Assembly (NCBI GenBank): GCA_039934355.1
Contig: JBDTMI010000001.1
Location: forward strand, 931-64,930
From: Gemmatimonadales bacterium
GTDB lineage: Bacteria > Gemmatimonadota > Gemmatimonadetes > Gemmatimonadales > GWC2-71-9
DNA length: 64,000 nt
Reading direction: 5' to 3'
Below, in pieces: positions 6,076 through 60,152 of the stretch (its first letter is position 1; each line of letters begins with the position of its first letter). The notes under the pieces were generated by a model. The model was not told where the DNA came from and did no database searches. It was given only the letters and a program-made list of their open reading frames with translations. A program made the position numbers and the translations under genes.

Positions 6076-6178
6076 GGTGGAGCTCCGCAGAGGTAGGAAG
6101 GGGATCAGGGCCGGGGTACATTATCGTCCCGATGGAGAAAACGCTATTCCCGGGTACCGGGCTCAGGAAAGGCTTCCG

Positions 6179-6738: not shown

Positions 6739-7895
6739 GTCAACAGCCGCTCGACCACCCGTCGGAACTCCGCCAGCAATGCGGTGTGGGCTGATCCGGT
6801 CACCGCGCCATAAAATCCCGCGTGAATCTGGCGGACCCGACCGTCTCTTCCCAGGAAAACCGTGGTCGGAAACGCGGTAAATCCCACCAGCCCTGGAAGC
6901 AGCGCCTCGACCGTTTCAACGTCGCTGGTACCGCCTAGCAGGAGCGGGAAGGTCAGCCCGAACTTGTCGCGATACCGGCGCACCAGCGGGGCGTCGAACG
7001 TACTGTCGCCGGTAACCTCGAAGGCCAGCCCCACGATCTCCAGCCCGCGGGAATGAAAATCCCGGTACAACTCGGCCAGCAGCGGCGCGGCGTCGTGGCA
7101 CGTCGGACACCAGCTGCCGAAGATGTCCAGCAGGATGACCTTGCCGCGGAACCGCGCATCGGTCGAACGGACGAGTCGCCCCTCGAGGTCGGGGGCGGCA
7201 AAGGCGAAGGGCAGGCTTGAATCGGCGCGGGTCACCTCGGTCGGTGGGGTCAGGTGCCGGCGGCCGCTGCTCCGCACGGCCACGAACGGCGTCTGACTGC
7301 GCAGGCCGGCGTGGAAGATACCCCGCAGCGTGTCGCCGTCGAGTTGGGCGGTGAGCAGGTAAACGAATGAGCCGTCGAAGTGCCCCAGCCGGATGGTGTC
7401 GCCCGCCATCTCCCCGGCGAACCGGCCGTAGTCACCCGAATTGCTGATGACGGTACCCTCGAGGCCGCTCGGTACGTTCTCGATCAGGAGCACGCGTGGG
7501 GTGGCGTCGAATCCGCTCTGGAACCAGGCATCCCAGCGGCCGACCAGCGCGATCGGGGCGACGGCATGCGGGGGCGTGCCGCGCGCGGCACGGAAGGGAA
7601 TCGTCCGGGGACCTCGTCGCCCGACATTGTGGTAGCGACCCACGAGGGAATCGCCCCGTTGCACCGCAGCGATGGAGGCGGCGTAATCCGCCAGCTCAAA
7701 GACGAGGCTGTCCCCTGCCTGCCGGACGCTTGTGAATGGCTGGCATTCCACCCCACTGCACAGCTGCCCGGTCCACCGGCCGCTCGAACCGGCGACCTGC
7801 AGCACAAAGGGCAGCGGCCCTCCGGCGAGATCCAGCGTGGCGCGCCAGGAGCCTGCAGGATTGCCCGGTCCTCGGCTGGTATCGTCGTGCCGCAT
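6729..7895 (-). CDS. TlpA/ResA-like thioredoxin-fold thiol-disulfide oxidoreductase with a large N-terminal domain
   Basis: Track ORF of 388 aa. The C-terminal redoxin domain carries GKVILLDIFGSWCPTCHDAAP (a CxxC motif). The start is uncertain; see the finding on the hidden hydrophobic extension. Confidence 0.75.
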   Translation of the reverse strand: MRHDDTSRGPGNPAGSWRATLDLAGGPLPFVLQVAGSSGRWTGQLCSGVECQPFTSVRQAGDSLVFELADYAASIAAVQRGDSLVGRYHNVGRRGPRTIPFRAARGTPPHAVAPIALVGRWDAWFQSGFDATPRVLLIENVPSGLEGTVISNSGDYGRFAGEMAGDTIRLGHFDGSFVYLLTAQLDGDTLRGIFHAGLRSQTPFVAVRSSGRRHLTPPTEVTRADSSLPFAFAAPDLEGRLVRSTDARFRGKVILLDIFGSWCPTCHDAAPLLAELYRDFHSRGLEIVGLAFEVTGDSTFDAPLVRRYRDKFGLTFPLLLGGTSDVETVEALLPGLVGFTAFPTTVFLGRDGRVRQIHAGFYGAVTGSAHTALLAEFRRVVERLLTEE

Positions 7896-25474: not shown

Positions 25475-26041
25475 GTGCTTGATGGGCTCAGGGCCCGGTT
25501 CGAGCGATTTCTCGCCGACCATACCCCGCCGGGTGACCCCCGTGCCCGTGCGGCCCAGCTTCACGCCGCCGTCCTCGACGCCAAGGTGGCGGTGGGCGAG
25601 ATGCGCAGTGCCCTGCAAACGAGCGAACTGGCGCTGACGCTTCAGCGGCAGCAGCTCACCGATGCCGAACGCCGGGGTGCGCTCGCCGCCGCGGTCCCGG
25701 ATCCGGAAACGGTGCAGGTGGCCGAGCAGTTCGCGGCACGGCACCGGGAGCGGATCGGACTACTGGAGAAAAAGGTGGCGGTGCAGCGCGACGAGCTCAT
25801 GCTGGCGGAACGTGATGTCGCCCAGTGGACCGCGGAGTTGAAACAGAACCGGCAGGGCACCGAGGCCGGACCGACCCCCGCCCAGGCTGCCGCGTGGCGC
25901 GATCTCGAAGCGGCGGGTGCACCCCGACCCGAGACAGACGTCGAAGGTGAGTTGCTCAAGGGCCGGCTGGAACGGGCCCAGATGGATGCGGCGGTGCAGG
26001 CGCAGCTCGACCACCTCAAGAAAAAGCTGGGGAAAGAATGA
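25475..26041 (+). CDS. Coiled-coil protein (weak PspA/IM30-like character)
   Basis: Track ORF of 188 aa with a GTG start. Heptad-like Ala/Leu/Glu/Arg/Gln-rich sequence throughout. Confidence 0.45.
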   Translation: MLDGLRARFERFLADHTPPGDPRARAAQLHAAVLDAKVAVGEMRSALQTSELALTLQRQQLTDAERRGALAAAVPDPETVQVAEQFAARHRERIGLLEKKVAVQRDELMLAERDVAQWTAELKQNRQGTEAGPTPAQAAAWRDLEAAGAPRPETDVEGELLKGRLERAQMDAAVQAQLDHLKKKLGKE

Positions 26042-26046
26042 ACGAC

Positions 26047-26192
26047 GGGGAAATGGGAAAAGGGAAATGGGAAAGGGGCGCTTTGTGGAATCGATGGCCG
26101 CGCATGGTCGCCCAATGCCCGCCCGCTGGAGCGGCGTGCATCGCCACACTGCTCGGGTTTTCCCTTTCCCTCTTCACTCTTCCCCTTTCCCC
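26047..26192. repeat. Imperfect inverted repeat built from heptamer arrays
   Basis: The left arm is GGGGAAATGGGAAAAGGGAAATGGGAAAGGGG (26047-26078). The reverse complement of the right arm (26155-26192) is GGGGAAAGGGGAAGAGTGAAGAGGGAAAGGGAAAACCC. About 26 of 32 positions match by hand alignment. The spacer is 76 nt. Confidence 0.7.
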
Positions 26193-43797: not shown

Positions 43798-43851
43798 CAG
43801 TCGAAGTAGTCGGGTTGGCGCTGCTCCGTCCTCACTCTTCGGGGAGACACC

Positions 43852-46290
43852 ATGCGTGAGCTGATACAGGATATCCGTTACGCTTTCCGGGGCTTGCGGC
43901 AGAGCCGGGGCTTTACCACCGTCGCGGTGCTCACGCTCGGGCTCGGGATCGGCGCCAACACCGCGATCTTCTCGGTCATCAACAGCGTGCTGCTCCGGCC
44001 GCTGGGCTACCCAGATCCTGACCGCCTGGTGACGGTGGAGCATCACTATCCCACTCTCGGCGATCTGCATGCATCAGTTTCGGTGCCGGGTTTCCTCGCC
44101 TACCAACAAAAGCGCCAGATCTTTGAAAAGGCCGCAGTGCAGAACGGCTGGCAGCCGACCCTCACCGGCCGAGGTGAGCCCACGCGGGTCCTCGGTTCCC
44201 AGGTTTCCGGCGACTTCTTCGGTGTCTTCGGGGTACCCCCGGCGCTGGGTCGCGTCCTGGGGGCCGAGGAAGCCGAGGCCGGTCACGACAGGGTCGTGGT
44301 CCTGAGCCTGGGGATGTGGCAGCGCGTATTCGGAGAGGACCCCTCCGCCCTGGGCCAACGAGTCCTGCTCGACGGTGAGAGTTATGAAATCGTCGGTATC
44401 ATGCCACCCGCCTTCGTCGATTTCTGGAACCGGCGGGCCGAGTTCTGGGTGCCGCTGGCGTTCACCCCGGCGCAGATGGACCCGAACCGTTGGACCAACG
44501 AGTTCCTGAGATTCACGGCCCGGATTCGCTCGGGAGAGTCGGTGGAGCAAGCGTCGGCGGACCTGGCAGCTTACGGGGTCCAGTTGCGGACTGAAAACCC
44601 GGACCGGTTCTCGCCAGACTGGGGCCTGCTCACCACCACGCTGAATGAGAAGGCCCGGGGACCGATGCGTGGCGCACTCTACCTGATGCTTGGCGCCGTC
44701 GGCCTGGTATTGCTGATCGCGTGCGCGAATGTCGCCAATCTGCAGCTGGCCCGGGCGGCGGCGCGCGGACGGGAGATCGCCGTGCGCGTGGCCCTCGGTG
44801 CATCCCCGGGCGCGTTGATGCGACAGTTGCTCACCGAGAGCATCCTGCTGGCGCTGGCGGGCGGCGTGCTGGGCGTGGTGCTGGCCGTGTGGAGTGTGCC
44901 GGCCCTGCTCGCGCTGGGGGGCGGTCGTGGGCTGCCCGATGCCAGTGATGTCCATCTCGACGGCAGTGTGCTCGCCTTTGCCCTGCTGATCTCGGTCCTG
45001 ACTGGCATCGTCTTCGGGCTTGCCCCGGCGATCCGGGTCGCTCGTGCCAGTCTCAACGAAGCACTCAAGGAAGGCGGGCGTGGCGTGGCGGCGGATCGGG
45101 GCGGACTGGCGCTCCGCCGGAGCCTGGTGGTTGCTACGGTGGCGCTGGCGCTGATGCTGCTCGCCGGGTCGGGTCTCCTGGTGCGCAGCTTCGGGCGCCT
45201 GGTTGGCATGGATCCCGGCTTCCACTCCGATCATCTGCTGACATTCAATGTGGCGCTTCCGCAGGTGAAGTATCCCAACGATACGGTCCGGATCGCAGCG
45301 CTCGAGAGGATCACCAGTGCCCTGAGCAACATGCCTGGCGTCACCTCCGCCGGCGGCACGTCGGTGATGCCGTTCGGGGGATCATGGTCCACCGGCAGCT
45401 TCAGCGTCGAGGGTTTCCAGCCTCCCACCAACGCGCCGGGTCCCTGGGGGGACATGCGGACGGTGACGCCGGACTTTCTGCCGACGCTCGGCGTCGAACT
45501 GCTCCAGGGGCGCCAGTTCAATGGAGAGGATCGGGCCGGGGGCCGCGCCGTGGTCATTGTGGACGAGGAGATGGCCCGGCGATTCTGGCCCAATGAGAAT
45601 CCCGTTGGCAAGCGGATCACGTTCAACAACCTGACCGACAGCAGCATTGCCTGGGTCGATGTGGTGGGCGAGGTGCGTCACACCATGCACGAGGGGCTTG
45701 ATGCGCAGGCGCGGGTCCAGCTCTACTTTCCGCTGCAGCAGAATGCTTTGCCGTTTCTTGCCTATGCGGTCCGCGTCAGTGGCGATCCCAAGGCCATTGC
45801 CAGCCTCGTCCGGCAGGCGGTCGCGTCAGTCGATGCCGACCTGCCGGTCTCCAATGTCAGCACGATGGACGAGCTGATCGAGGGCACCACCGGCCCGCGC
45901 CGGTTCGCGATGCTGCTGCTGGGCTCGTTCTCGGTGCTGGCAGCCGCGCTGGCCGCGATCGGGCTGTATGGGGTCATGTCGTATACCGTCACCCAGCGTT
46001 CCCGCGAACTCGGCGTCCGCCTCGCGCTCGGGGCGGTGCAGCGTGATGTGCTGAAGCTCGTGCTGGGGCAGGGGCTCCGACTCGCCCTCATCGGTGTCGG
46101 AGTGGGCCTGGTCGCAGCCCTCGTACTCACCCGGCTCCTGCGGAGCATGCTCTTCAACGTGAGCGCGACCGATCCGCTCACCTTCGTGCTGATACCGCTG
46201 TTGCTGCTGGCCGTGACGCTGCTGGCCAGCTGGATTCCGGCGCGACGGGCGACGCGGGTCGACCCGGCGGTTGTGCTGCGCGCAGACTGA
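43852..46290 (+). CDS. ADOP-family duplicated FtsX/MacB-type permease, copy 2
   Basis: 812 aa. N-terminus MRELIQDIRYAFRGLRQSRGFTTVAVLTLGLGIGAN. C-terminus WIPARRATRVDPAVVLRAD. Confidence 0.9.
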   Translation: MRELIQDIRYAFRGLRQSRGFTTVAVLTLGLGIGANTAIFSVINSVLLRPLGYPDPDRLVTVEHHYPTLGDLHASVSVPGFLAYQQKRQIFEKAAVQNGWQPTLTGRGEPTRVLGSQVSGDFFGVFGVPPALGRVLGAEEAEAGHDRVVVLSLGMWQRVFGEDPSALGQRVLLDGESYEIVGIMPPAFVDFWNRRAEFWVPLAFTPAQMDPNRWTNEFLRFTARIRSGESVEQASADLAAYGVQLRTENPDRFSPDWGLLTTTLNEKARGPMRGALYLMLGAVGLVLLIACANVANLQLARAAARGREIAVRVALGASPGALMRQLLTESILLALAGGVLGVVLAVWSVPALLALGGGRGLPDASDVHLDGSVLAFALLISVLTGIVFGLAPAIRVARASLNEALKEGGRGVAADRGGLALRRSLVVATVALALMLLAGSGLLVRSFGRLVGMDPGFHSDHLLTFNVALPQVKYPNDTVRIAALERITSALSNMPGVTSAGGTSVMPFGGSWSTGSFSVEGFQPPTNAPGPWGDMRTVTPDFLPTLGVELLQGRQFNGEDRAGGRAVVIVDEEMARRFWPNENPVGKRITFNNLTDSSIAWVDVVGEVRHTMHEGLDAQARVQLYFPLQQNALPFLAYAVRVSGDPKAIASLVRQAVASVDADLPVSNVSTMDELIEGTTGPRRFAMLLLGSFSVLAAALAAIGLYGVMSYTVTQRSRELGVRLALGAVQRDVLKLVLGQGLRLALIGVGVGLVAALVLTRLLRSMLFNVSATDPLTFVLIPLLLLAVTLLASWIPARRATRVDPAVVLRAD

Positions 46291-46371
46291 ATCCCTCCCC
46301 GCATTCTCAGGGCAAACCGCCGGTTCGTCCCCGCCCGACCCGGGAACTACTCAACGCCTGGACGCGCATTC

Positions 46372-48822
46372 ATGAGTTCACTGTTCGCTGATGTCCGCGC
46401 CGCGTGGCGCTCGGTCCGTCGCGCGCCGCAATTCTCCGTGATCGCCGCGTTGACCCTCGCGGTCGGCATCGGTGCCGTCACGACGCTCACCAGCATGCTC
46501 GACATGCTGCTGCGGCGTCCGCCAGCGGATGTCACGGCGCCGGCGCAGGTGGCCCGGCTGTTCTTCCATCACCGGAACCCGCAGTTCGGCGACTGGCGCA
46601 ACTCGGTGGTGAGCTACCCCGACTACACCGACCTCAGGCAGGCAAAGAGCTTCTCGGCCGTCACCGCGGTCTATAGCGGGTCGGCCTCGATGGGGCGTGG
46701 TGCCGACGCCGCCCCAGTCGACCTGGCCGCAGTGACGGGAAGCTATTTCCCGCTGCTGGGCGCCAGCCCGCTGCTGGGCCGGCTGCTGGGCCCCGACGAC
46801 GACCGGCTCGATGCCGGCGTCCCGGTGGTGGTGCTGAGCGAACGGTTGTGGCGTACCCGGTTTGGTGCCGGCCGGACCATCCTGGGACAGAGCATCGCAC
46901 TGGACGACCAGACCTACACCGTCGTCGGGGTGACCCGACCCGCATTTGACGGAGGTGAATACACGGCACCGGACCTCTGGGTGCCATTCACCGGCGTCGC
47001 GCACCGGATGCAGGGCAACGACGAGTATCGCACCGACCGGGGATGGTACTTCATCTCGCTGCTGGGACGGCTGGCGCCCGGTGCCACGCGGGAAGGGGCC
47101 GCCGCCGAGGCGACCAGCCTGATCCGCGCAGGCCGCAGCGATTCCGCCACGGCAAACGGGTTTCAGGATGTCCAGCTCGGGCCCGTCATGGAGGCGGCCG
47201 GCCCGGATCACAGCGGCACCGCGAATCTGGCGCGCTGGCTCAGCGCCATGTCGCTCCTGGTGCTGCTGATCGCCTGCGCCAACGTGGCCAACCTCATGCT
47301 CGCCCGCGGCCTGACGCGCGGCCGGGAACTCGCTATCCGCAAGGCACTCGGCGCGGGCCAGCGCCGCCTCGTCCGGCAGCTCTTCCTCGAGGGACTGCTG
47401 ATTTCGCTGATGGCCGGTTGCGTGGGGCTGCTGGTGGCAGCCTGGGGTGGTGGAGTGCTGCGCCACTACGTTCTCCCCGCCGCACTGGCGGAGCGATTCA
47501 CCACCGACGGGCGGGTCTTCGCGATCGCGGCAGGGGCCACGCTGATCGCCGCACTTCTAGCCAGCCTGGTGCCGGCGCTGCAGGTGACGGGGAGTGATCT
47601 GACACCGGTCCTGAAGGAAGGTGGGCGCGGCAGCGGATTTCGGCGCTCGCGGGTGCGGTCCGGCCTGGTGGTGGCCCAGGTCGCGCTGAGCGTGCTGTTG
47701 GTGATTGGCGCCGGGCTCTTCGCCCGCAGCCTCCGCAACATCCTCGGCATCGATGTCGGCTACGACCGCGACCAGGTGCTGATGGTGAGCGCCGATCCCG
47801 CCTCGGTGGGATTCACCGGCCCGCAGACGGGGCAGGCCTTCGATGCCATGCTCGCGGCGGCGCGCGCCCATCCGGGGGTTGTCTCGGGGGCCCTGACGTA
47901 TGGTGAACCCTTTGGCTGGAGCATGGCGCAGGGGCTGCGGATCGTGGGGCGGGATTCGCTCCCGCGGATGTCGAGCGGAGGGCCATACATCCAGCGCACC
48001 ACGGCGGAGTTCTTCCAGACGATGGGGATCGCGTTGCAGCGGGGACGCGGCTTCACGGAGGCGGACCGCCGCGAGCACCCTGCCGTCGCCGTTATCGGTG
48101 CCACCATGGCGAAACGGTTCTTTCCCGATGAGGATCCGATCGGCCAGTGTCTTCTCCTGGGCAAGGAGGCGATGGACTGCACTGCGATCATCGGGATCGC
48201 CGAGGACGGGGTGCGTTACTCGCCGCGGGAGGAGCCGCAGGCGATTTACTATGTGCCCCTTTCGCTGCCTGGGGTCGAGACCCGCCACCTGACGCTCTTC
48301 CTTCGCTCCCGCGGCCCCGCGGCGGCCCTCGCGGCGGAGGTGCGGGGTGTGCTGCAGTCCGCTGCGCCAGGGCTGCCCTATGTCGAGGTGCGGCCGCTGA
48401 ACCAGGTGCTGGAACCGGCGTACCGGGATTTCCGCCTTGGCGCCATGCTCTTCACGCTCTATGCGTTCGTGGCACTGCTGCTGGCGGCGCTCGGATTGTA
48501 CAGCGTGCTCGCGTATGCGGTGCGGGGACGGACCCAGGAACTCGGGGTGCGCCTCGCGCTGGGTGCCGCACCGAGCAGCCTGGTGCGGCTGGTGGTATCC
48601 GACGGTGTGCGACTCACGCTGCTGGGCACGGCGCTCGGCATCCTCGGCGCGCTGGCGGCGGGGAGGGCGCTCGCCAGTCTGCTGTATGGTGTACCGGCCT
48701 GGGATCCGCTCACCCTCGGACTCGCCACCGCGACGGTCCTGCTGACAGCGCTTTGCGCCAGTCTACTACCGGCGCGTCGGGCCACGCGCATCGACCCCAT
48801 GACCGCGCTCCGATCCGAATAG
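46372..48822 (+). CDS. ADOP-family duplicated FtsX/MacB-type permease, copy 3
   Basis: 816 aa. N-terminus MSSLFADVRAAWRSVRRAPQFSVIAALTLAVGIGA. C-terminus LLPARRATRIDPMTALRSE. Confidence 0.9.
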   Translation: MSSLFADVRAAWRSVRRAPQFSVIAALTLAVGIGAVTTLTSMLDMLLRRPPADVTAPAQVARLFFHHRNPQFGDWRNSVVSYPDYTDLRQAKSFSAVTAVYSGSASMGRGADAAPVDLAAVTGSYFPLLGASPLLGRLLGPDDDRLDAGVPVVVLSERLWRTRFGAGRTILGQSIALDDQTYTVVGVTRPAFDGGEYTAPDLWVPFTGVAHRMQGNDEYRTDRGWYFISLLGRLAPGATREGAAAEATSLIRAGRSDSATANGFQDVQLGPVMEAAGPDHSGTANLARWLSAMSLLVLLIACANVANLMLARGLTRGRELAIRKALGAGQRRLVRQLFLEGLLISLMAGCVGLLVAAWGGGVLRHYVLPAALAERFTTDGRVFAIAAGATLIAALLASLVPALQVTGSDLTPVLKEGGRGSGFRRSRVRSGLVVAQVALSVLLVIGAGLFARSLRNILGIDVGYDRDQVLMVSADPASVGFTGPQTGQAFDAMLAAARAHPGVVSGALTYGEPFGWSMAQGLRIVGRDSLPRMSSGGPYIQRTTAEFFQTMGIALQRGRGFTEADRREHPAVAVIGATMAKRFFPDEDPIGQCLLLGKEAMDCTAIIGIAEDGVRYSPREEPQAIYYVPLSLPGVETRHLTLFLRSRGPAAALAAEVRGVLQSAAPGLPYVEVRPLNQVLEPAYRDFRLGAMLFTLYAFVALLLAALGLYSVLAYAVRGRTQELGVRLALGAAPSSLVRLVVSDGVRLTLLGTALGILGALAAGRALASLLYGVPAWDPLTLGLATATVLLTALCASLLPARRATRIDPMTALRSE

Positions 48823-48870
48823 AGGCAACCCACGGGTTGCGTGCGTTCACCTCCCTCCGACACGAGGCCG

Positions 48871-51333
48871 ATGCTCATGACCGCGCTCATCGACGATCTG
48901 CGGATCGCCTTACGCACATTGCGGCGGGCCCCCGGCTTTGCCGCCGCCTGTGTGCTGACGTTCGCGGTCGGCATCGGCGCCACCACCTCGCTCTTCTCGG
49001 TGGTTGACGGGGTGATCCTCCGGCCGCTCCCTTTCGCCAACCCGGACGACCTCTACTTCTTCTCGGAGCAGGGCCGCGATGGCGCCCAACGCCTCCCGTC
49101 GTACCCCAATTTTTCCGACTACCGCACGGAGGCGACGGCCTTCGCCGCACTGGGGTATGTCGTTGGACAGTCGGCCATTCTCCGTACCGGGGACGGCGTC
49201 ACCAACTTCGCCCTGGGCAAGGTCTCCGACGGTTTCTTCCAGACGCTGGCGGTGGCACCGCTCCTCGGGAGAGGGCTCCTGCCGGAAGACGAGCGACCCT
49301 CCGCCGCCCCGGCGGCGGTACTGACCTACAGCTTCTGGCGATCCCAATTCGCTGGCGATCCGACGATCATCGGCCGGACCGTCACGACCGCCGAGGGCGG
49401 GCTGACGGTCGTCGGCGTCCTGCCGCCCGGGGTGGTCTTCCCCATCTGGGCCCAGATCTATTCGCCGCTGTCCGCCGGCGCACCCCCCGCAGCAATGCAG
49501 TGGCGGAATCTGCATGTAGACGGCGGGATGATCGCGCGCCTGGCCCCAGGTGCCGATCGGGCCCAGGCCGAGGCGCAGCTCGCCGCGCTCAGCCACCGGA
49601 TGGCCGAAGCCTATCCTGCCGACAACGCCGGATTCAGCGCGCTGCTCACGCCACTCCGCGATACCGTGATCAATGGCAACGTGCGGACGCCGCTGCTGTT
49701 CCTGCTCGCCGCGACCGGGGTTGTGCTGCTCATCGCGTGCGTCAATGTCGCCAACCTGTTCCTTGCCCGTCTGGCGCGCCGGACCCATGAACTGGCGCTC
49801 CGCTCGGCCCTCGGCGCGGAACGGAGCCGGCTGGTGACGCAGCTGCTGGCGGAAGCGGTGCTGCTGGCCAGCGTCGGCGCGGTGATCGGGCTGGTGTGCG
49901 CCGCCCTCCTGATCCGACTCCTGGCGACGGGCGATTCCAGCGTCGCGATCGCCGTTGGCAGCTTCGTGCCGCGACTCGAGGAGTTGCGAATGGATGGCCG
50001 CATCGTGGCGCTCGCCGTCAGCCTCACGCTCGCCAGTGCGCTGGCCGCGGGCCTGGTGCCGGCGTGGACCGGCAGTCGCACCGATCTCGCCAGGGTGCTC
50101 AAGCAGGGGGGCGCACGGAACAGCGGCGGATCAGGAACCGCCGGCCGCCGGCTGTTGATCGGCGCACAGAGCGGGCTCGCGCTGGCGCTGCTCATTGGGG
50201 CGGGGTTGCTCCTGAACAGTCTTTGGCGCGTGACCAGGGTGGATCGTGGTTTCGAGAGCGCAGGGCTGCTGACGGCGCACATCTTCCCGTCGCCGCGGTA
50301 CCAGGCGCCGGACAGCAACCTCCCGGAGCTGTATCGCCGCCTGGTCGATGCGGTCAGCGCGGTGCCCGGGGTGCGTGGGGTCGGACTGGTGAACCATCTC
50401 CCGATGGGCGGAGCGTGGACGGGCAGCCGAGTGAGCATTGATGGCGCGCCGATCGAGCCGGGGCGTGAGCTCACCGTCGGTGTCCGCTCCGTCAATCAAC
50501 CCTACCTCGACGTGATGCGGATTCCGCTGCGGCGCGGCCGGTGGTTCTCCCCGGGTGACATGCGCGAATCGCTCACCGGGGTCGTCATCAACCAGGCGAT
50601 GGCGGATAAGTACTGGCCCGGCGCCGATCCCGTCGGGCGTCGGGTTGCGTTTTTCAAGAGCGCCGCCGGCCGGGCTGATTTCGGACAGCCGCTCTCGGCG
50701 GAGGTCATCGGCGTCGTGGGCGACGTGCGGCAGTTCGGCCTGGAGCAGGCCTCGGATGCCGCGCTCTACGTCCCCTTCACGGCGGCGCCCTGGGGGCACA
50801 CGTCATTTACGATCCGCACCACTGGCGATCCGGCGCTATTGATCGAGCCGGTGCGACGCGCGCTCGTCGCGGCCGAGCCCGACCTGGTCGTCGATGGGCT
50901 GACCCCCATGGATCTGGTGGTGTCGGGCACGCTGGTGACCCGCAACTTCCTGCTGCTCCTGCTCGGCGGCTTCGCGCTGACCGCGCTGGTGCTGGCCGGC
51001 ATCGGTCTCTATGGCGTGCTCAGCCATCTGGTTGGCGAACGGACCAGGGAGATCGGGATTCGCCGCGCGATTGGTGCCAGCGAGGGCCGCATTGTGCGAC
51101 AGATTGTGAGCGACGGGATGATGGCGGTGACCGGCGGCGCGGTGGCCGGACTGACGCTCGCATGGGGCGTCGGCCGGCTACTCGCCAGCCAGCTCTTCGG
51201 GGTGACGCCGACCGATCCATTCACCTGGCTCGCGACCACGCTGGTGCTGTTGATTACCGGGCTCGTGGCCTGCTATGGACCGGCCCGACGGGCCGCGCGC
51301 ATCGATCCGCTCACCGCACTCCGGAGTGAATGA
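48871..51333 (+). CDS. ADOP-family duplicated FtsX/MacB-type permease, copy 4
   Basis: ATG at 48871 ([37 protein letters not shown]) inside track ORF 48841..51333. C-terminus [19 protein letters not shown]. Confidence 0.9.
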
Positions 51334-53750
51334 TGGACACACTGCTGAAGGATCTCGTGTACGCCCTTCGCACCCTCCGGCGCAATCCGGGTTTCACGGC
51401 GGTGACCGTGTTGACGCTCGCACTGGGGATTGGCGCGAACACTGCGGTGTTCAGCGTCTTGTACAGTGTCATGCTCAAGCCGCTGCCGTATCCGGAGCCG
51501 GAGCGACTGGTCCGACTCACGCAACGGGGCGATGGCTACGAGGGGGAGCAGTCCCTCACCTACTCCACTTTCCAGTACATCTCCGCGCACCCGGCCGGAC
51601 TGGAGGCATCGGCGGTCACCGCTTCGGTCGGCTTCAACATCGTCGCTCCCGGGGGCGCAGTGCGCGCAGCCGGCATGCGGGTCTCTCGGGACTACCTCCG
51701 CACGCTCGGGATCAGCCCGGCCATGGGCCGCGACTTTGTCACTGAGGAAGACCAGCCGGGCGGCGCCAACGCCGTGATCCTGAGCCATGGATTCTGGCAG
51801 CGCGCCTTCGGCGGGGACCCTCGTGTGCTCGGGCGAAGCGTTTCCCTCGATGGCGCCCCCTACCAGGTGGTCGGGATCATGCCGGCCGACTTCCACGTGA
51901 CTCCGGCGGTGGAGGCCTGGTCGACCATCGCCCAGGTGGCGAACACGATCGGCAACGGCGCCAATCTCCAATTCGTGGGCCGACTCGCTCCCGACGTCAC
52001 GCTGGCGGAAGCGCGGGCGCGGTGGCTGCCGACCGCGTTGGAGCTGCCGCGAGCCTTCCCGGGGAATTTTGATCCGGTGAACCGGATCGAGCTTGCCTCC
52101 GCACTGGGAGTCACGATGCAGGCGGTGTCCGGCCCCATGAAACTGCTGGCCGGCGCGATCGCCTTCGTGCTCCTGATCGCCTGTGCCAACGTGACCAGCC
52201 TGGTCCTCGGCCGGGGACTGGTCCGCAACCGGGAACTGGCGCTGCGTCAGGCGCTCGGCGCGAGCCGCGCCCGGCTGATACGGCAACTCTTCACCGAGAG
52301 CATTCTGCTCGGATTGATCGGTGGCGCCCTCGGGCTCCTCCTCGCCACCTGGGGCGTGCATCTGCTGGTCAGCGTTCTCCCCGGTGACCTCCCCCGCGGC
52401 GAGGACGTCCGTATCGATGGCGCAGCGCTGGGCTTCACCCTTGGTCTGTCACTCCTGGTCGGCATCGTGGTCGGCCTGCTCCCCGCCTGGCACGCGCGAG
52501 TCGGCCTGCGCGGCGGAGCACGCATCGAGGGATCCTCTCGCAGCACCAGCGGCTCGAGCCACACCCGGATGCGCAACGCGCTGGTGATCGGTGAACTCGC
52601 CCTGGCCCTGGTGCTGCTCACCGGCGCGGGATTGCTGATCCGCACCTTTGCAAACCTCGTGGCGACCGATCCCGGGTTCGAGCCGAAGCAGGTGCTCGCT
52701 GCCGAGATCTGGTTGACTGGAACCCGCTATGCGACTCCCGCCGCCACCAGCGATTTCTACGACCGGCTCACCACCGAGTTGGCGGGGGTTCCCGGGGTGG
52801 TGCGCGCCGGCGTGGTCGAAGCCGGGCTTCCGCTCGAGCGTGGAGGCAACCTCGCGGTGGTACTCGATGGTGCGCGCCTGAAAGGCACGATCGATTATCG
52901 CAGCATTACGCCCGGCTACTTCGACGTCCTCGGCGTGTCGCTGCGTCAGGGACGGGGCGTCGCGGTCACCGACGTCGCCGGCGGAGAGCCAGTGGTCGTC
53001 GTGAACGAATCGTTCGCCGCTCACTTCCTCGGCGGTGGCGGCGCGGCGCTCAATCGCCAGGTGTCCGTCAGCCATGACCAGTTGGCGCTGCGCCGGGTCG
53101 TTGGTGTCGTAGCCGATGTCCGCTCGTTTGTCGGCCTGCCGGCCCCACCGACAGTGTTCCTCCCTTCGGCTCAGACCCCGACCGAGTTGACCCGGCTGTT
53201 GAGCACCTGGTATCCGATCCATGTGGTGCTCCAGACCCGGAATGACCCCGCCCGGCTGCAGGAGGCGCTGCGCAGCACGATTCATCGGGTGGATCCCCAG
53301 GTTCCCGTGGGTCGGGTGCGGCCGCTTTCGGAGGTGCTCGCCGAGACGCTGTCCCTGCAACGATTCATCATGGTCGTGCTCGCCGCCTTCGCGAGCCTCG
53401 CGATGCTGCTCGCCGTGGTCGGGATCTACGGGCTGCTGTCGTACCTGGTCCTTCAGCGCACCCGCGAGATCGGAGTGCGACTGGCGCTTGGTGCACGACC
53501 GGTCGACGTGCTCCGCATGGTGCTGCGGCAGGGCCTGGTGCTCACGATGGGAGGCGTGGTCCTGGGGCTGCTCGGTGCCGCGGCGCTGACCCGGCTCCTC
53601 GCCAGCCAGCTGCACGGGGTCGGGTCGCTCGATCCCAGGACATTCATTCTCGGCGGGTCCCTTCTCGTCGTGGTCGGTCTCGTGGCGAGCGCCCTCCCGG
53701 CGGTGAGGGCGGCGCGCGTTCAGCCAATGCAGTCACTCAGGAGCGAATGA
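51330..53750 (+). CDS. ADOP-family duplicated FtsX/MacB-type permease, copy 5
   Basis: 806 aa. N-terminus [41 protein letters not shown] overlap with copy 4. C-terminus [19 protein letters not shown]. Confidence 0.9.
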
Positions 53751-56167
53751 TGGACACCCTGCTGCAGGATCTCCGGTACGCGCTCCGCGCACTCCGGCGC
53801 AGTCCCGGCTTCACGGTCGTCACCGTGCTGACGCTGGCCCTCGGCATCGGGGCGAACACCGCGATCTTCAGCGTGGTCAACGCGGTGCTCCTGCGGCCGC
53901 TGCCGTACGGAGCACCGGATCGACTGGTGATGGTGTGGGAGCGGAAGAGCGGAGGGCCCACCGACCGCAACGTCGTGAGTCCCGCCAACTATCTCGACTG
54001 GAAGGACCGCTCCTCCAGCTTCGAAGGTCTTGCGGCGTTCACCTGGTCCGGCACCACGTTGTTAGGCGACATACCGGAACGGGTGCAGGGCCGCAAGGTC
54101 ACTCCTGACTTCTTCAGTGTGCTTGCGGTGGCTCCGGCGCTGGGGCGCACCTTTACCGACGAAGAGGCCCGCAAGGGACAGGGGCGGGTGCTGATCCTGA
54201 GTGACGGGCTCTGGCGGCGGCGGTTCGGCGCCGATCCAACGCTGGTGGGGCAGTCCATCGCTGTGGCGGGAGGGACCGCCACGGTCCTGGGTATCATGCC
54301 GCGCTCCTTTCAGCCGCTTCCATGGGGGCAGGAGGAATATTGGGAGCCGCTCACCCTCGGTGCGGATGACCACCTCCGGCGGGGTCGATATGCGCAGGTC
54401 ATCGGACGGCTGAAACCCGGCGTGACCCTGGCTGCGGCGGAAGCGGAGATGGCGGGCATCGCCGGCGCGCTGGCGCAGGAGTATGTGGAGTTCAATACCG
54501 GATGGGGGGCAAATCTCGTCCCGCTCTCCGAGCAGGTGTCGGGCTCGTCGCGGCTGGCACTTCTGGTCGTCCTCGGCGCGGTGTCGCTGGTCCTGTTGAT
54601 CGCCTGCGCGAACGTGGCGAACCTGATGCTCGGCCGCGCCGCCTCGCGTCGCCGGGAACTCGCAGTCCGTTCCGCGCTGGGGGCGCCGCGCTGGCGCCTC
54701 ACTCGACAGTGGTTCACCGAAGGCGTCCTGCTGGCGTGCGCCGGGGGAGCGCTCGGAGTTCTCCTGGCGGTCTGGGGGGTGGATCTCCTGGTCGCAGCCG
54801 GACCAACCGGGATCCCCCGGTTGGCAGAATTGAGCGTGGACGGTCGTGTCCTCGCGGTCTCGGTGCTGGTGTCGCTCCTGGCGGGCGTGCTCTTCTCGTT
54901 GCCCGGACTCTGGGGCGGGGTGGCTCGACCGAGCGCGACCGGACTGCGCGAAGGGGCCCGCACCACGGCGGGCACCGGGGCGCGTCGTTTCCGTGGCGCA
55001 CTCGTCATCGGCCAGGTGGCGCTTGCGCTGGTACTGCTGTTCGGTGCCGGACTGCTGGTCCGCTCACTCCAGCGGCTAACGGCGGTTGACACCGGGTTCG
55101 ACCCCCGCAATCTCCTGACGGCGCAGCTGGACCTGCCCCTGGCGAGCTATCCCGACGACGCGCGCCAGGATGCGTTCTTCCGCCGACTGCTCGAGCGACT
55201 TCGCGCCACCCCGGGCATCGAGGCGGCCGGACTGGTCACCTACGTGCCGTTCATGGGCGCGGGGGCTGCCACCGGGTTCACCGTCGTGGGGCGGCCCCGC
55301 CCTTCGGCAGGTGAGGAGCCGGTGGCCGATATCCGGGTGGTCGATCCGGGATACTTCGATGCGATGAAGATTCCCCTGCGCCTTGGCCGCGGACCGACGG
55401 CAGCGGATGGCGCGGGTGCGCCGCCGGTGGTAGTGATCAACGAGACGATGGCGCGCCAGCTCTGGCCCGGCAGCGATCCGATCGGTCAGCGGGTACAGGT
55501 GAGCTGGTGGAACGAGCAGGCGTTGCCGGAGGTGATCGGCGTTGTGGGCGACGTGCGGCGCACCAGCCTCGATGAAGACCTGCGGCCGATGATCTATTAT
55601 CCGATGGGGCAGAGCCCGACCGGGGGCGGGATGATGCTGGTGGCCCGCACCCGGGGGGACGCCACCGCTTCGACCACGGCCGCGATCCGCCAGGCACTGC
55701 GCGAACTCGATCCCGTTCTGCCTATCAGCGACGTTGCCACCATGTACAACCGCCTCGCTGCGACCATGACGGACCGGCGCTACCCGATGATCCTGCTCGG
55801 GCTGTTCGCCGGAGTGGCGCTGGCTCTCGCGGCCATAGGTTTGTATGGTGTGCTCGCCTTTGCGGTGGGAGAGCGCACCCGGGAACTCGGGGTGCGGATG
55901 GCGCTGGGCGCGCGACCCGTCGACATCGTCGGCATGGTCTTGCGCGGAGGGCTCTCCCTCACGCTCGCCGGCTTGGGATTGGGTGCGGTCACGGCCGCGA
56001 TCGTTTCCCGGGTGCTCGGGCATCTGCTCTATCAGGTCCCGGCCACCGATCCGGCCACCTTCGGGGCGGTGTCGACGCTGCTGGTGATTGTGGCCGGCGT
56101 CGCCTGTCTCGTCCCCGCCCGTCGGGCAGCCCGCACCGATCCGATCGTGGTGCTCCGTGCCGAGTAG
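53747..56167 (+). CDS. ADOP-family duplicated FtsX/MacB-type permease, copy 6
   Basis: 806 aa. N-terminus [41 protein letters not shown] overlap with copy 5. C-terminus [19 protein letters not shown]. Confidence 0.9.
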
Positions 56168-56221: not shown

Positions 56222-56884
<663 letters not shown>

Positions 56885-56886
56885 GT

Positions 56887-56916
56887 GCGGTCAGCATTGA
56901 GCGTTCAGCGTTCAGC
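56887..56916. repeat. Left arm of the heptamer inverted repeat
   Basis: GCGGTCAGC ATTGAGC GTTCAGC GTTCAGC. It overlaps the stop codon of the four-helix-bundle ORF. Confidence 0.8.
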
Positions 56917-57277
56917 ACTTGATCGAGGTGGTGAGACGAGCCACAAACCTTGCCAGCATCCGCTTCACTTCCACGACCGCATCGCTCACCGCCGGGAGGT
57001 CCTGCTCCACGCCGTACCCGAGGTCGGTCGCCAGGAGGAGCAGGTATTCCAGTTCAGCGGCCGATCCCAGCGAGTAGCGGAAAAATCTGGCGGCTTCGCG
57101 GTCGCTTCCCCGAGCGCTACCTTCCACAATATTGGCCGCGACCGAGACGGCCGCTCGTTCCATCTGGGAAATGAGCCCGAAACGCTCTTTCGCCGGTAGC
57201 GAACGTGTTACTCGATAGACCTCCAGCGTAGTGCGGTGCGCCTTCTGCCAGACTTTCAGTCGCCGGTATCCTTGCAT
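56912..57277 (-). CDS. Four-helix-bundle protein (TIGR02436 / 23S rRNA intervening-sequence protein family)
   Basis: 121 aa: YRRLKVWQKAHRTTLEVYRVTRSLPAKERFGLISQMERAAVSVAANIVEGSARGS...FFRYSLGSAAELEYLLLLATDLGY matches the family pattern from memory. Confidence 0.85.
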   Translation of the reverse strand: MQGYRRLKVWQKAHRTTLEVYRVTRSLPAKERFGLISQMERAAVSVAANIVEGSARGSDREAARFFRYSLGSAAELEYLLLLATDLGYGVEQDLPAVSDAVVEVKRMLARFVARLTTSIKC

Positions 57278-57386
57278 GCCTGTCCGCTTGTGTGAGAGGC
57301 GCCGAATCTGTTGGAGTCTGACATGGCCAGGGTATCATTTGACCGCACTTCGAAGCATTCCTACGCGATTCGGGGGTAGGAGGGAT

Positions 57387-57437
57387 GCTGAATGCTGAAC
57401 GCTGAACGCTGAACGCTGAATGCTGAACGCTGACCGC
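57387..57437. repeat. Right arm: tandem heptamer array
   Basis: GCTGAAT GCTGAAC GCTGAAC GCTGAAC GCTGAAT GCTGAAC GCTGACC GC. That is seven 7-nt units, the reverse complement of the left-arm units. Confidence 0.85.
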
Positions 57438-57446
57438 CCACGGCCC

Positions 57447-58808
57447 ATGCCTCTCCTTACGCCTCGCATCCTCATCGCCGACGACCAGGCCGATGTGCTT
57501 CAGGCCCTGCGGCTGCTGCTCAAGGGCGAGCATTTCACTGTCGAGACGACCAGTTCGCCCGGCGGTGTGCTGGCGGCGCTGGAGCGAAGTGATTTCGATG
57601 TCCTGCTGATGGACCTCAATTACACCCGCGACACCACCTCCGGCATCGAGGGCTTCGACCTGCTGAGCCGGATCCAGCTCCTGGACGCGATGCTGCCCGT
57701 GGTGGTGATGACGGCCTATGGGAGTGTCGAGGGCGCGGTGGAAGCCATGCGACGTGGCGCGCGCGACTATCTCGAGAAGCCGTGGGACAACACCCGGCTG
57801 GTCGCGGTGCTGAACATCCAGGTGGAGCTGGGCCGCGCGCTGCGCCGCAGCCAGCGGCTGGAGAGCGAGAACCAGATGCTGCGCCACGATGGGCTGCCGC
57901 CGCTGGTAGCGGAGTCGGCCGCCATGCGGCAGATCGCCCGCCTGATGGAAAAGGTGGCCCCGTCGGATGCGAATGCGCTGATCACCGGGGAGCACGGGGT
58001 CGGCAAGGAAGTCGCCGCGAACTGGCTGCATGCCGCCTCGCTCCGTGCCGCCCGGCCGATGATCACCGTCAACGTCGGCGGCCTCCCCGAGGGCGTGTTC
58101 GAGAGCGAACTCTTCGGCCACCTGAAAGGCGCCTTCACCGACGCCAAGGCCGACCGGATGGGCCGCTTTGAACTGGCCGACGGAGGCACCCTCTTTCTCG
58201 ACGAAATCACCAACATCACGCTGGCGCAGCAGGCGCGGCTGCTGCGGGTGCTGCAGTCGGGACAGCTCGAACGGGTCGGCAGTTCCAAGACCCGCAAGGT
58301 CGATGTGCGGGTCGTGTCGGCGACGAATGCCGACGTGCGTGCCGAAGTGGCCGCCGGCCGGTTTCGCGAGGACCTGCTGTACCGGCTCAATACCGTCGAG
58401 ATCCGCATTCCCCCGTTGCGCGACCGGCGCGAGGACCTCGCACCACTCGCGGCCCAATTCCTTTACCGCCATGCGACGCGCTACCGCAAACCGATCAGCG
58501 GCTTCCGGCCCGACGCCATGGAAGCGCTGCTGCGCTACGGCTGGCCCGGCAACGTGCGCGAACTCGAGCACACGATCGAACGCGCGGTGCTGTTGGTCGA
58601 TGGCCCCGAGATTCGCCCGGCGGATCTTTCCCTCTCACCTCCAGGTGATGCGGCGGCGGGACTCGACCAGCTCACGCTGGAGGAGGTCGAGGGCGTGCTG
58701 GTCCAGAAGGCTCTGGCCCGCACTGGCGGCAATGTCTCCGAAGCCGCCAAGGCGCTCGGTCTCTCCCGCAGCGCCATGTATCGGAGGCTGGAGCGCCATG
58801 GCCTGTGA
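57447..58808 (+). CDS. Sigma-54-dependent response regulator (NtrC family bEBP)
   Basis: ATG at 57447 (MPLLTPRILIADDQADVL...DVLLMDLNY receiver). AAA+ domain with a Walker A-like GEHGVGKE, the GAFTDA variant of the GAFTGA loop, and GGTLFLDEI. C-terminal Fis-type HTH GNVSEAAKALGLSRSAMYRRL. The track start at 57420 lies inside the repeat arm. Confidence 0.9.
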   Translation: MPLLTPRILIADDQADVLQALRLLLKGEHFTVETTSSPGGVLAALERSDFDVLLMDLNYTRDTTSGIEGFDLLSRIQLLDAMLPVVVMTAYGSVEGAVEAMRRGARDYLEKPWDNTRLVAVLNIQVELGRALRRSQRLESENQMLRHDGLPPLVAESAAMRQIARLMEKVAPSDANALITGEHGVGKEVAANWLHAASLRAARPMITVNVGGLPEGVFESELFGHLKGAFTDAKADRMGRFELADGGTLFLDEITNITLAQQARLLRVLQSGQLERVGSSKTRKVDVRVVSATNADVRAEVAAGRFREDLLYRLNTVEIRIPPLRDRREDLAPLAAQFLYRHATRYRKPISGFRPDAMEALLRYGWPGNVRELEHTIERAVLLVDGPEIRPADLSLSPPGDAAAGLDQLTLEEVEGVLVQKALARTGGNVSEAAKALGLSRSAMYRRLERHGL

Positions 58809-58826: not shown

Positions 58827-60152
58827 ATGATGTCGCACCCGCGGCGGGTGCTTGGGCTGGCGCTGATCACCGCGCTGCCGGGGACCGCGGTCGGGCTCTG
58901 GCTGCTGTGGCACGGCGAATTCACCTCCCGGGCCCAGTGGACCGTCACCGTCGTCATCCTGCTCGTCCTGCTGTTCGGGCTGAGCGCGCTGCACGAGCGC
59001 GTCATTCGCCCGCTGCAGACCCTCTCGAACGTGCTCGCCGCCCTCCGGGAGGGCGATTACAGCCTGCGGGCCCGGCGCGCCGATGCCACGGATGATCTCG
59101 GGCTGGTCTACCTCGAGGCCAACGTGCTGGCGGAAACGCTGCGTGGGCAGCGGCTTGGCGCCCTCGAGGCGGTGGCACTCCTCCGCACCGTCATGGCGGA
59201 ACTCGATGCGGCGATCTTCGCCTTCGACGCGGACGGTACGTTGCGGCTGGTGAACCGGGGCGGCGAACGCTTCGTGCACCACCCCGGCGACCGGTTGCTC
59301 GGACGCACCGCCGCCGAGCTGGGCCTCGCCGAATGTCTCGCCGGGGAGACGCCGAGGGTATTGGAGCGGGCCGGCGCCTCGGCGACCCGCTGGGAGCTGC
59401 GGCGCACCAGCTTCCGTCAGGATGGACGTCCCCACCAGCTGATTGTCCTGACCGACGTGAGCCGTACCCTGCAGGCCGAGGAACGGCAGGCGTGGCGCCG
59501 CCTGATCCGCGTCCTCTCGCACGAGATCAACAATTCCCTCGCACCGATTCGCTCCCTGGCGGGCACACTGCAGGGGATCCTCGAGCGCGCGCCACGGGGA
59601 GCGGACGCCGAACAGGATCTGCGTCAGGGGCTCGGGATCATCGAACAGCGGGCCGATGCCCTGGGACGATTTATGGCCGCGTACGCCCAGCTCGCCCGGC
59701 TTCCGCGGCCGCGGCTGGCCCTGGTGGTGGTCGATCAGTGGGTGCGGCGGGTCGTCACGCTGGATCAGCGCCTGCCACTCCGCGTCATTCCCGGTCCGGA
59801 TCTCAGCGTCACCGCCGATGGTGACCAGCTCGACCAGCTGCTCATCAACCTCGTTCGCAACGCGGCGGACGCCGTCGCCGGCACGGCGGGGCTGGTGCGG
59901 GTGGGGTGGGGCGAGGTGCGCGGTGGCGTCGAGTTGTGGGTCGAGGACGACGGACCCGGGCTCGCGGAGACGGCAAATCTGTTCGTTCCCTTTTATACCA
60001 CCAAGCCGGGTGGGTCGGGAATCGGGCTCGCGCTGTCGCGGCAGATCGCGGAAGCGCATGGCGGCGAACTGTGGCTGGAGAACCGGACGGACGCGACCGG
60101 GTGCCGGGCGCGGTTCTGGCTGCCGAGCGGGATTCGGGGGGCCGCCCCGTGA
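58827..60152 (+). CDS. Sensor histidine kinase (2 TM with about a 10-aa external loop, HAMP, PAS, HisKA, HATPase)
   Basis: TM1 VLGLALITALPGTAVGLWLLW, loop HGEFTSRAQW, TM2 TVTVVILLVLLFGLSAL. H-box LSHEINNSLAPI. G-boxes DDGPGL and GSGIGLAL. Confidence 0.9.
   Translation: MMSHPRRVLGLALITALPGTAVGLWLLWHGEFTSRAQWTVTVVILLVLLFGLSALHERVIRPLQTLSNVLAALREGDYSLRARRADATDDLGLVYLEANVLAETLRGQRLGALEAVALLRTVMAELDAAIFAFDADGTLRLVNRGGERFVHHPGDRLLGRTAAELGLAECLAGETPRVLERAGASATRWELRRTSFRQDGRPHQLIVLTDVSRTLQAEERQAWRRLIRVLSHEINNSLAPIRSLAGTLQGILERAPRGADAEQDLRQGLGIIEQRADALGRFMAAYAQLARLPRPRLALVVVDQWVRRVVTLDQRLPLRVIPGPDLSVTADGDQLDQLLINLVRNAADAVAGTAGLVRVGWGEVRGGVELWVEDDGPGLAETANLFVPFYTTKPGGSGIGLALSRQIAEAHGGELWLENRTDATGCRARFWLPSGIRGAAP

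Follow-up and report, generated by a model that had tools for sequence, protein, structure and literature searches.

Positions 56887–57437 of a 64-kb stretch of DNA from a Gemmatimonadales bacterium (contig JBDTMI010000001.1; the whole stretch is called the window below) consist of a gene for a four-helix-bundle (4HB) protein lying between inverted arrays of heptamers. Comparison with orthologous operons gives good support to the view that this cassette was inserted into a stop-to-start junction of 11–14 nt, between the ATPase gene of a pump operon and the gene of a response regulator, and that the final 9 nt before the regulator ATG were left intact. We consider it probable that the arms and the gene form one inserted unit, designed like a 23S rRNA intervening sequence, and that its arms pair in RNA as a plausible substrate of RNase III. 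Cassettes of this type are widespread, and we know of no earlier description of the type as such, with its arms, its placement at junctions and its exclusive cargo.

A 4HB gene between inverted heptamer arrays

The original prediction, which had been made from the sequence alone, described an ORF of 121 aa on the strand opposite to the operon, bracketed by identical 9-nt termini with 3 further units on the left and 6 further units on the right, and all of these elements were present (Table 1). The outer termini, GCGGTCAGC and GCTGACCGC, are exact reverse complements over their 9 nt; in other words, they are perfect terminal inverted repeats. The right arm runs in the order GCTGAAT, GCTGAAC, GCTGAAC, GCTGAAC, GCTGAAT and GCTGAAC, followed by GCTGACCGC. 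Tandem Repeats Finder assigned a period of 7 to both arrays, with 4.3 and 7.3 copies, and an inverted-repeat search found the arms to be 87–93% complementary over 27–31 nt. When the window was searched with the pattern TCAGCNNTCAGCNNTCAGC, allowing up to two mismatches, all 8 matches fell within the two arms, compared with 0.26 matches expected from shuffled sequences. The window contains one copy of the cassette, to which its TCAGC-type arrays are confined. The stop codon of the ORF (TGA, 56912–56914, minus strand) falls within the first GCTGAAC unit of the downstream arm.

Both score and fold clearly place the protein in PF05635/TIGR02436, in agreement with the earlier statement that its family was first found in 23S rRNA intervening sequences. 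PF05635 was the sole Pfam match of the ORF (116.6 bits, compared with a cut-off of 33.8), and the TIGR02436 score was 110.3 bits (cut-off, 24). An AlphaFold monomer model showed four helices (pLDDT 94.2), which Foldseek aligned with XCC0516 (PDB 2GSC, TM 0.85–0.90) and BT_0352 (2RLD, TM 0.77–0.80); phmmer also matched the protein to 2GSC (E 2e-16). In a metagenome-assembled genome, a 100% identical protein is annotated as 'four helix bundle protein [Gemmatimonadales bacterium]'. The PADLOC defence models gave no match to the protein, no other functional family was matched, and no homologue was found in phage genomes. To our knowledge, PF05635 is a large, structurally solved family without a known function outside the retroelement protein Avd.

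Avd of diversity-generating retroelements has the same fold (Foldseek TM 0.71–0.76 to 4DWL and 8UB7) and was rejected as an identity for the 4HB protein. The corresponding profile, NF033474, matched only weakly (20.7 bits, compared with a cut-off of 80), the neighbouring genes encode the pump, ATPase, regulator and kinase, and neither a reverse transcriptase nor a template/variable repeat lies nearby.

A search of the whole window at the gathering threshold, of the cassette at a permissive threshold and of 20 loci without clear arms found no Rfam family, rRNA included, and a tRNA scan found no tRNA. The cassette thus has no rRNA or tRNA context.

Table 1. Features of the 4HB cassette and its host junction in the window
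Feature	Coordinates	Strand	Basis or remarks
ABC-transporter ATPase, final gene of the pump block, host gene 5' of the insertion	56222..56884	+	Pfam ABC_tran E 2e-28; orthologues 72-90% identical adjoin the regulator in relatives
Left spacer remnant GT	56885..56886	+	Part of the original ~11-nt spacer between ATPase stop and regulator start; compared with empty sites
Left arm (downstream arm for the 4HB gene): 9-nt terminus GCGGTCAGC, then ATTGAGC, GTTCAGC, GTTCAGC	56887..56916	.	Tandem Repeats Finder, inverted-repeat search, pairing in folds
4HB protein gene, 121 aa, PF05635/TIGR02436	56912..57277	-	Profiles, AlphaFold model, Foldseek, phmmer
Untranslated leader, ~107 nt, from upstream arm to 4HB ATG	57278..57386	-	Promoter presumed within; mostly conserved between window and L081, not between window and L089
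Right arm (upstream arm for the 4HB gene): six GCTGAAY units, then 9-nt terminus GCTGACCGC	57387..57437	.	Tandem Repeats Finder period 7, 7.3 copies, score 81
Right spacer remnant CCACGGCCC, abutting the regulator ATG	57438..57446	+	Aligns with the 3' part of empty-site spacers (ATT-CCACGCCC)
Sigma-54-dependent response regulator, host gene 3' of the insertion	57447..58808	+	Pfam Response_reg, Sigma54_activat and HTH_8; start at 57447 fixed by homologues
Histidine kinase, after the regulator	58827-60152		

Insertion at the ATPase–regulator junction

A search with the regulator yielded 80 metagenomic loci, in which we classified the junction on the upstream side of the regulator gene (L-numbers denote the individual homologous loci compared). 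Inspection of these relatives agreed with the earlier claim that the cassette is inserted in the operon, since the junction was found empty, occupied by the same cassette or occupied by a different one. Empty junctions were present in L104–L108, L122 and L147, where a spacer of 10–14 nt (for example, tag-ATTCCACGCCC-atg) separates the two genes and the regulators are 76–81% identical to that of the window. Occupied junctions were present in the window, L094, L089–L093, L096, L097, L100, L101, L103, L148, L155 and L001. In the window, the ATPase stop codon is TGA (56882–56884), and removal of the cassette would leave 2 nt and 9 nt of host spacer between this stop and the regulator ATG, that is, 11 nt, close to the 12 nt first estimated. 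GT plus CCACGGCCC aligns with the empty-site spacer, and the cassette therefore entered about 2 nt past the ATPase stop codon. No target-site duplication was visible when the arrangement GT-cassette-CCACGGCCC was compared with the empty sites, and a duplication of 1–2 nt could hide in the palindromic ends.

Orthologous cassettes with GTTCAGC-type arms were found in L094/L081 (4HB protein 82% identical) and L089–L093 (72.5%). The numbers of repeat units upstream and downstream of the gene were 7 and 4 in the window, 9 and 6 in L094/L081, and 4 and 3 in L089–L093; at the orthologous locus, 8 independent assemblies had identical arrays. Since its insertion the cassette has been inherited vertically, while its arrays gained and lost units.

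Other loci carry different cassettes at the same junction. These include L100 (unit RTCAGCC, 4HB protein 49% identical), L096 (4HB protein 56% identical), L001 (unit TCAGCCG), and L097, L101, L148, L155 and L103 (unit GTTGGCC, 44–47% identical); the copy in L103 is a frameshifted pseudogene with its arms kept. At equal divergence of the host genes (regulator ~84% and ATPase ~82% identical), the 4HB proteins are 72.5% identical in one lineage and 44–56% identical in others, and the latter values are no higher than those for proteins from other phyla. This discordance favours several acquisitions or replacements of cassettes at the regulator junction, and disfavours a single old insertion followed by very fast divergence of the 4HB gene and two precise losses.

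The same junction also receives other genes. In two relatives, L099 (1590–2500) and L132 (439–1349), it holds a 910-nt insert that encodes a probable secreted protein and contains neither heptamer arrays nor a 4HB gene; the ATPase–regulator junction is thus a hot spot at which gene content changes in general. In L101 (226–358) and L148 (176–241), a direct array (GGAGTGA)n, with at least 17 units in L101, takes up the interval between the ATPase stop codon and the start codon of a DUF3052-like ORF. Its unit combines a Shine–Dalgarno-like GGAG with TGA, and the 4HB cassette follows the DUF3052-like ORF.

Heptamer arms as a feature of the gene family

We then compared the window with 80 loci encoding relatives with 44–56% identity, giving 81 loci in total; the 80 loci came from Acidobacteriota, Gemmatimonadota, Planctomycetota, Chloroflexota, NC10, Nitrospirota, candidate-phyla-radiation bacteria and others. 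Period-7 arrays were present on both sides of the gene in 34 loci, whereas 19 loci had them only upstream and 8 had them only downstream. Arms of this kind thus accompany the gene in roughly two thirds of the 80 homologous loci. In addition, significant degenerate heptamer stems were detected in 18 of the 46 loci tested among those lacking arrays on both sides. The density of arrays was about 11 times higher within 150 nt of the 4HB gene than in the remainder of the same loci.

The arms have a fixed chirality on the gene strand: the upstream arm is (TCAGCNN)n and the downstream arm is (NNGCTGA)n, and the reverse was never seen. Frequencies along the unit, which are somewhat inflated by the rotation applied to align units, were T 0.9, C 0.7–0.8, A 0.8–0.95, G 0.95, C 0.7–0.8 and T 0.6, followed by N. 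Within a locus, the consensus units of the two arms agreed at 5.91 of 7 positions, compared with 4.84 after permutation, and none of the 5000 permutations reached the observed value. Rare variants of the core (TTAGC, TGAGC, TAAGC, ACAGC and TCAGT) likewise co-occurred on both arms of one cassette. The stems were 15–39 nt long, with Watson–Crick pairs at 816 of 913 positions (~89%). In many loci the ORF reaches into the downstream arm and finds its stop codon there, which indicates that the arms and the ORF form one unit.

The association also held in the reverse direction. In 428 kb of sequence picked by the regulator and not by the 4HB gene, all ten inverted heptamer pairs with loops of 420–510 nt held a 4HB gene, and the remaining four pairs had loops of 23–80 nt without an ORF. 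Thus, the 4HB gene is the only cargo that we saw inside heptamer-array hairpins.

In L006 (2340–3000), about seven tandem copies of a 92-bp unit lie upstream of an intact 4HB gene. In each unit a heptamer array is followed by a 36-nt leader and then by codons 1–7 of the 4HB gene and TAG, and the whole could be mistaken for a CRISPR array.

Placement in operons and occurrence in finished genomes

Both neighbours were co-directional with the 4HB gene in 40 of the 71 loci scored; opposite-strand placement as in the window is a minority arrangement. The neighbour pairs are unrelated housekeeping genes, such as dprA and topA (in about 11 Terriglobales), an ABC permease and ATPase, or MacB and EF-G. 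The upstream arm begins at a median of 1.5 nt past the stop codon of the neighbour, often overlapping it, and the distance from the downstream arm to the next start is 0–7 nt in one third of cases and ~30–75 nt otherwise. Longer leaders, with promoters of their own, were expected where the upstream neighbour lies on the other strand; the median leader lengths were 53 nt for this orientation and 28.5 nt otherwise, a trend only (p = 0.11).

Cultured organisms with finished genomes have cassettes of the same design. In cyanobacterial plasmids, inverted heptamer arrays flank 11 of 13 4HB genes, with units that include TTAGCTG, GGGTGTR, GGGAGTR, GGGAARA, TCAGGAG, AGGTGAC and GGAGATA, and the genes lie between cas6 and cas4 (twice), between cmr2 and cmr3, between parA and parB, and between two nrd genes. 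In Xanthomonas (L188–L191, ~1425–1880), orthologues of XCC0516 lie between accB and accC with GGGAATC-type arms; the (GGGAATC)-type array begins 6 nt past the accB stop codon and its complement ends at the accC ATG. A previous study of the GGGAATC repeat of Xanthomonas counted 186 sites, including 70 in inverted pairs, and described the repeat as a putative quadruplex former; its supplement lists the array upstream of XCC0516 as #15, with neither the partner array nor the gene family (PMC4692102). Taken together, what is conserved is the period of 7, the tandem arrays and their inversion around the 4HB family, and the sequence of the unit is specific to the lineage or genome.

The three plasmid loci in CRISPR–cas operons are L175, L179 and L186, with the order cas6–4HB–cas4 twice and cmr2–4HB–cmr3 once. 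'23S rRNA IVP' has been listed among CRISPR-linked domains (PMC10910872), and 4HB genes inside cas and cmr operons may underlie this listing. Links between CRISPR arrays and this domain may also partly reflect 4HB cassettes and their repeats. On plasmid 1 of Gemmatirosa kalamazoonensis, a cultured member of Gemmatimonadota (L178, ~1030–1110), a partial 4HB match is closely preceded by a heptamer hairpin, in which (GGGCAGGA)-type and (TCCTGCC)-type arrays enclose a short loop.

Predicted pairing of the arms in RNA

In minimum-free-energy folds of both strands, the arms of the window cassette were paired (3+8+17 bp, ~28 bp), and the folds were more stable than shuffled controls, with z values of -3.8 and -3.2 for the two strands. 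A scan of positions 56700–57600 found neither a promoter nor a terminator, and the arms are not an intrinsic terminator. In Coxiella, an rRNA intervening sequence with an ORF of the same family is excised by RNase III, and the 5' cut falls at the first of 3–4 strain-variable tandem heptamers (PMC4990558).

Following this precedent, we propose that the arms would pair into a helix of ~28 bp in the operon transcript, and equally in a transcript of the other strand. The interior of 470 nt would be looped out, so that the ATPase stop and the regulator start would meet again at the foot of a single stem. As in rRNA intervening sequences, such a helix would be the expected substrate of RNase III. 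Its cleavage would separate the pump mRNA from the regulator mRNA and, where a cassette is co-directional with its operon, would free the 4HB mRNA. The RNase III processing and the polarity suggested in the original prediction are inferences of the same kind. The arms would then be retained by selection for limiting the damage that the insertion causes to the operon. Because the 4HB gene of the window is opposite to the operon, it needs its own promoter, which presumably lies in the ~107-nt leader. A role at the RNA level, namely looping out, probably with cleavage by RNase III that parts the pump and regulator messages, is most likely on these analogies, and it would explain both the survival of the arms over long vertical descent and their closeness to the stop and start codons of the neighbours. 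In the window, the regulator and kinase genes are probably uncoupled by the insertion from transcription of the pump.

Several observations weigh against this interpretation. First, as to the RNA, the scan described above detected no sigma-70-like promoter for a gene that opposes the direction of its operon, and the steps at the RNA level are deduced from folds and analogy. Mismatches between the arms, counted on the gene strand, comprise 28 G–U and 17 A–C, a difference that is not decisive, and 6 of the 28 G–U come from one doubtful locus; without a clear preference for G–U, the sequences of the arms show no sign of selection acting on the RNA. A hairpin by itself also explains neither the period of 7 nor why the 5' arm is always TCAGC and not GCTGA. 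Period and chirality hint at recognition by a protein, possibly the 4HB protein itself. Second, about one third of the homologous loci have weak arms or none, and in L175 (1030–1700) the arrays are direct and not inverted, with (GCTAAAA)15 upstream and (GCCAAAA)n downstream, each ending just before a start codon. Third, mobility is read from comparison, and neither a transposase nor a target-site duplication was found; at the regulator site, one ancient insertion that diverged fast and was twice lost precisely is the less favoured possibility. The earlier suggestion that the cassette may be mobile agrees with the occupied and empty states of orthologous sites, but recent transposition was not seen: seven proteins were looked up by exact sequence, and identical proteins always occurred in a single context.

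Heptamer hairpins without an ORF

Heptamer hairpins or arrays that contain no ORF were also found at operon junctions. At the junction between the regulator and histidine kinase genes, relatives of the window carry them at or near the regulator stop, and some end at the kinase start (L097, 2089–2160; L100, 3860–3910; L101, 2738–2819; L102, 1482–1587; L103, 3873–3978; L096, 3865–3894; L109, 3851–3882). The corresponding junction in the window is a plain spacer of 18 nt.

Two further examples were found in the window. At 6694–6737, a hairpin composed of (GTGAGGA)2 GG, an 8-nt loop and (CTCCTCA)3 lies between the convergent ORFs 5993–6697(+) and 6729–7895(-); it resembles an ORF-less version of the cassette, and its GTGAGGA unit forms long arrays in L101 and L148. 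At 26048–26191, the inverted arrays (GGGAAAW)4 and (TTTYCCC), the latter of about 5 units, lie ~80 nt apart. The first starts 6 nt past the stop of ORF 25475–26041(+), and the second extends over the region in which the next long ORF starts. The GGGAAAW unit resembles the GGGAATC repeat of Xanthomonas and the GGGAARA arms of Geminocystis (L180).

Alternative explanations

It is possible, although unlikely, that the arms act at the level of DNA, as terminal inverted repeats or binding arrays for the 4HB protein or for a recombinase or transposase encoded elsewhere, and that RNA pairing is a by-product. Fixed chirality and a core conserved across phyla are reminiscent of ends recognized by a protein; moreover, G–U pairs are not enriched, and the site is occupied in some relatives and empty in others. 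However, the sequence of the unit varies across the family, and we found no target-site duplication and no multi-copy identical elements. Arms have also been kept over long vertical descent (dprA–4HB–topA in the ~11 Terriglobales and accB–4HB–accC across Xanthomonas), during which unselected microsatellites should decay, and they abut the stop and start codons of neighbours, which suggests a role in expression.

A broader proposal, which we put forward tentatively and regard as unlikely, is that the 4HB cassettes and the ORF-less junction hairpins of the same genomes constitute one undescribed element family. The 4HB protein would recognize, process or propagate the 7-nt arrays, and the gene-less hairpins would be non-autonomous derivatives. 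Its role would then be likened to that of RAYT for REPINs, or of its homologue Avd for a reverse transcriptase; the 4HB protein has invariant Y, E, Q, R, S, N, E, G, S and E positions. If true, this proposal would account for the heptamer repeats of Xanthomonas, Nostoc and Beggiatoaceae.

Alternatively, the hairpins could have come first: heptamer hairpins would arise or spread alone at operon junctions, and a mobile 4HB ORF with its leader would land in their loops, so that the arms would be the target and not the cargo. We consider this quite unlikely. Intervening sequences of rRNA also occur without an ORF, which is a point in its favour, and so is the abundance of ORF-less heptamer hairpins at junctions (between the regulator and kinase genes of L097 and L100–L103, and at the two sites in the window described above). 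The units look genome-specific, as illustrated by Xanthomonas, where the arms are made of the dispersed GGGAATC repeat, and in L109 the arm of the cassette and a nearby array have a common unit. Nevertheless, no gene-less hairpin was found at the ATPase–regulator junction of relatives, where sites were either bare or fully occupied, and the fact that the ORF takes its stop codon from the downstream arm across many lineages and unit types is better explained by co-inheritance of arms and gene.

It is very improbable that the 4HB gene is simply a resident gene, such as a pump or two-component accessory, whose arrays are translation or regulatory signals. Such roles have been proposed for the TAACTGA repeats upstream of start codons (MacGregor; PMC4679880). 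In line with this possibility, (GCTGAAY)n stops 9 nt before the regulator ATG, arrays end at start codons in L026, L039, L069 and L175, and the upstream junction of the regulator is occupied in most members of one clade, whichever gene lies on the other side. However, orthologous operons work with a bare junction of 10–14 nt; the same family with arms is found in unrelated operons (dprA/topA, accBC, cas, cmr, par, nrd and ABC importers); and the searches described above matched the protein to no defence system or other functional family.

Telomere-like terminal arrays added by a reverse transcriptase are no more than a speculation, given a strand polarity opposite to that of telomeres and the lack of a nearby reverse transcriptase. 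Finally, the inverted heptamer runs could be chance microsatellites or assembly artefacts, given that the window comes from a metagenome-assembled genome, that repeats often break or distort assemblies and that several contigs end near cassettes, but this idea can be dismissed: it is refuted by the excess of pattern matches over shuffled sequences and the identical arrays in eight independent assemblies, and an artefact of assembly is ruled out because cultured Xanthomonas, Nostoc, Calothrix and Anabaena, whose genomes are finished, have the same design.

As a separate matter, the attC-like core of integrons (GTTRRRY) was rejected as an explanation of the heptamers, because their units do not fit it.

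Relation to known systems

The 23S rRNA intervening sequences with an ORF in Leptospira and Coxiella burnetii ('S23p') resemble the window cassette in having a PF05635 ORF, terminal inverted repeats and a stem of ~28 bp. In Coxiella, tandem heptamers (GACAGAT, 3–4 copies, strain-variable) lie between the stem and the ORF start, and the ORF was described as decaying (PMC4990558). In contrast, the cassette of the window lies between the genes of an ABC ATPase and a response regulator, with no rRNA in the window; both of its arms are overt heptamer arrays, and its gene looks intact and conserved. RNase III processing is a precedent from Coxiella, by which we infer it for the window. The original prediction spoke of an rRNA architecture transplanted into an mRNA site. 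The likeness in design holds, in the arms as well as in the predicted helix, but the direction was probably the reverse: operon junctions are the common home of these cassettes (dprA/topA, accB/accC, cas6/cas4, cmr2/cmr3 and parA/parB), so that the rRNA site looks like a special case.

Correia elements of Neisseria are small intergenic insertions with inverted ends that are co-transcribed with their neighbours, form a helix cut by RNase III that alters the stability of neighbouring mRNA, and are present or absent between strains. They carry no ORF, their terminal repeats are defined and non-repetitive, TA is duplicated at the target, and a genome holds hundreds of near-identical copies. The window cassette shares with them the inverted ends and the occurrence of both occupied and empty sites, whereas it differs in carrying an ORF and ends made of heptamer arrays, and in that neither a target duplication nor multiple identical copies were found.

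In REPIN–RAYT systems, a small gene is flanked by inverted short repeats that are also dispersed, without the gene, at intergenic and operon-junction sites, and the hairpins lie just past stop codons. The Xanthomonas 4HB gene is similar in lying between inverted copies of a genome-dispersed repeat, GGGAATC (PMC4692102). However, the gene product is a 4HB protein of 120 aa, unlike the HUH/Y1 transposase of REPIN–RAYT systems, the arms consist of tandem 7-mers in place of single palindromes, and TCAGC-type arrays occur only at the cassette within 64 kb; dispersal by the 4HB protein would be pure conjecture.

Heptamer repeat families, namely GGGAATC (Xanthomonas), GGGGAYT (Nostoc; Rehm 2015), TAACTGA (Beggiatoaceae and cyanobacteria; MacGregor 2015) and the cyanobacterial STRR, form intergenic tandem arrays with a period of 7, as in the window, although the window unit GTTCAGC is neither G-rich nor TAACTGA. 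These arrays often occur as inverted pairs, near the end of an upstream gene or just before a start codon, with copy numbers that vary between strains, and the roles proposed for them were G-quadruplex formation or translational functions, with no link to the 4HB family (PMC4692102; PMC4679880). As a published connection between 4HB/S23p genes and heptamer repeats, we found only the remark on Coxiella and the unlinked entry in the supplement of Rehm, and such a link may be published elsewhere. Our analysis ties PF05635 to the repeatedly reported and unexplained over-representation of heptamer repeats in bacterial genomes. The hairpin sites include essential and well-studied operons, such as accB–accC in Xanthomonas, dprA–topA in Acidobacteriota, and cas and cmr in cyanobacteria. 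Whether mRNAs contain excisable insertions as rRNAs do, how an operon tolerates 0.5 kb in a junction of 11 nt, and what role the protein plays can be tested in culturable organisms such as Xanthomonas.

One further observation concerns the pump block upstream of the cassette. The ATPase gene is preceded by six tandem ORFs of ~810 aa (41338–56167), an unusually large array of paralogues for one operon. The last of the six encodes a duplicated permease (MacB_PCD plus FtsX), and the N-terminus of the preceding ORF is near-identical.

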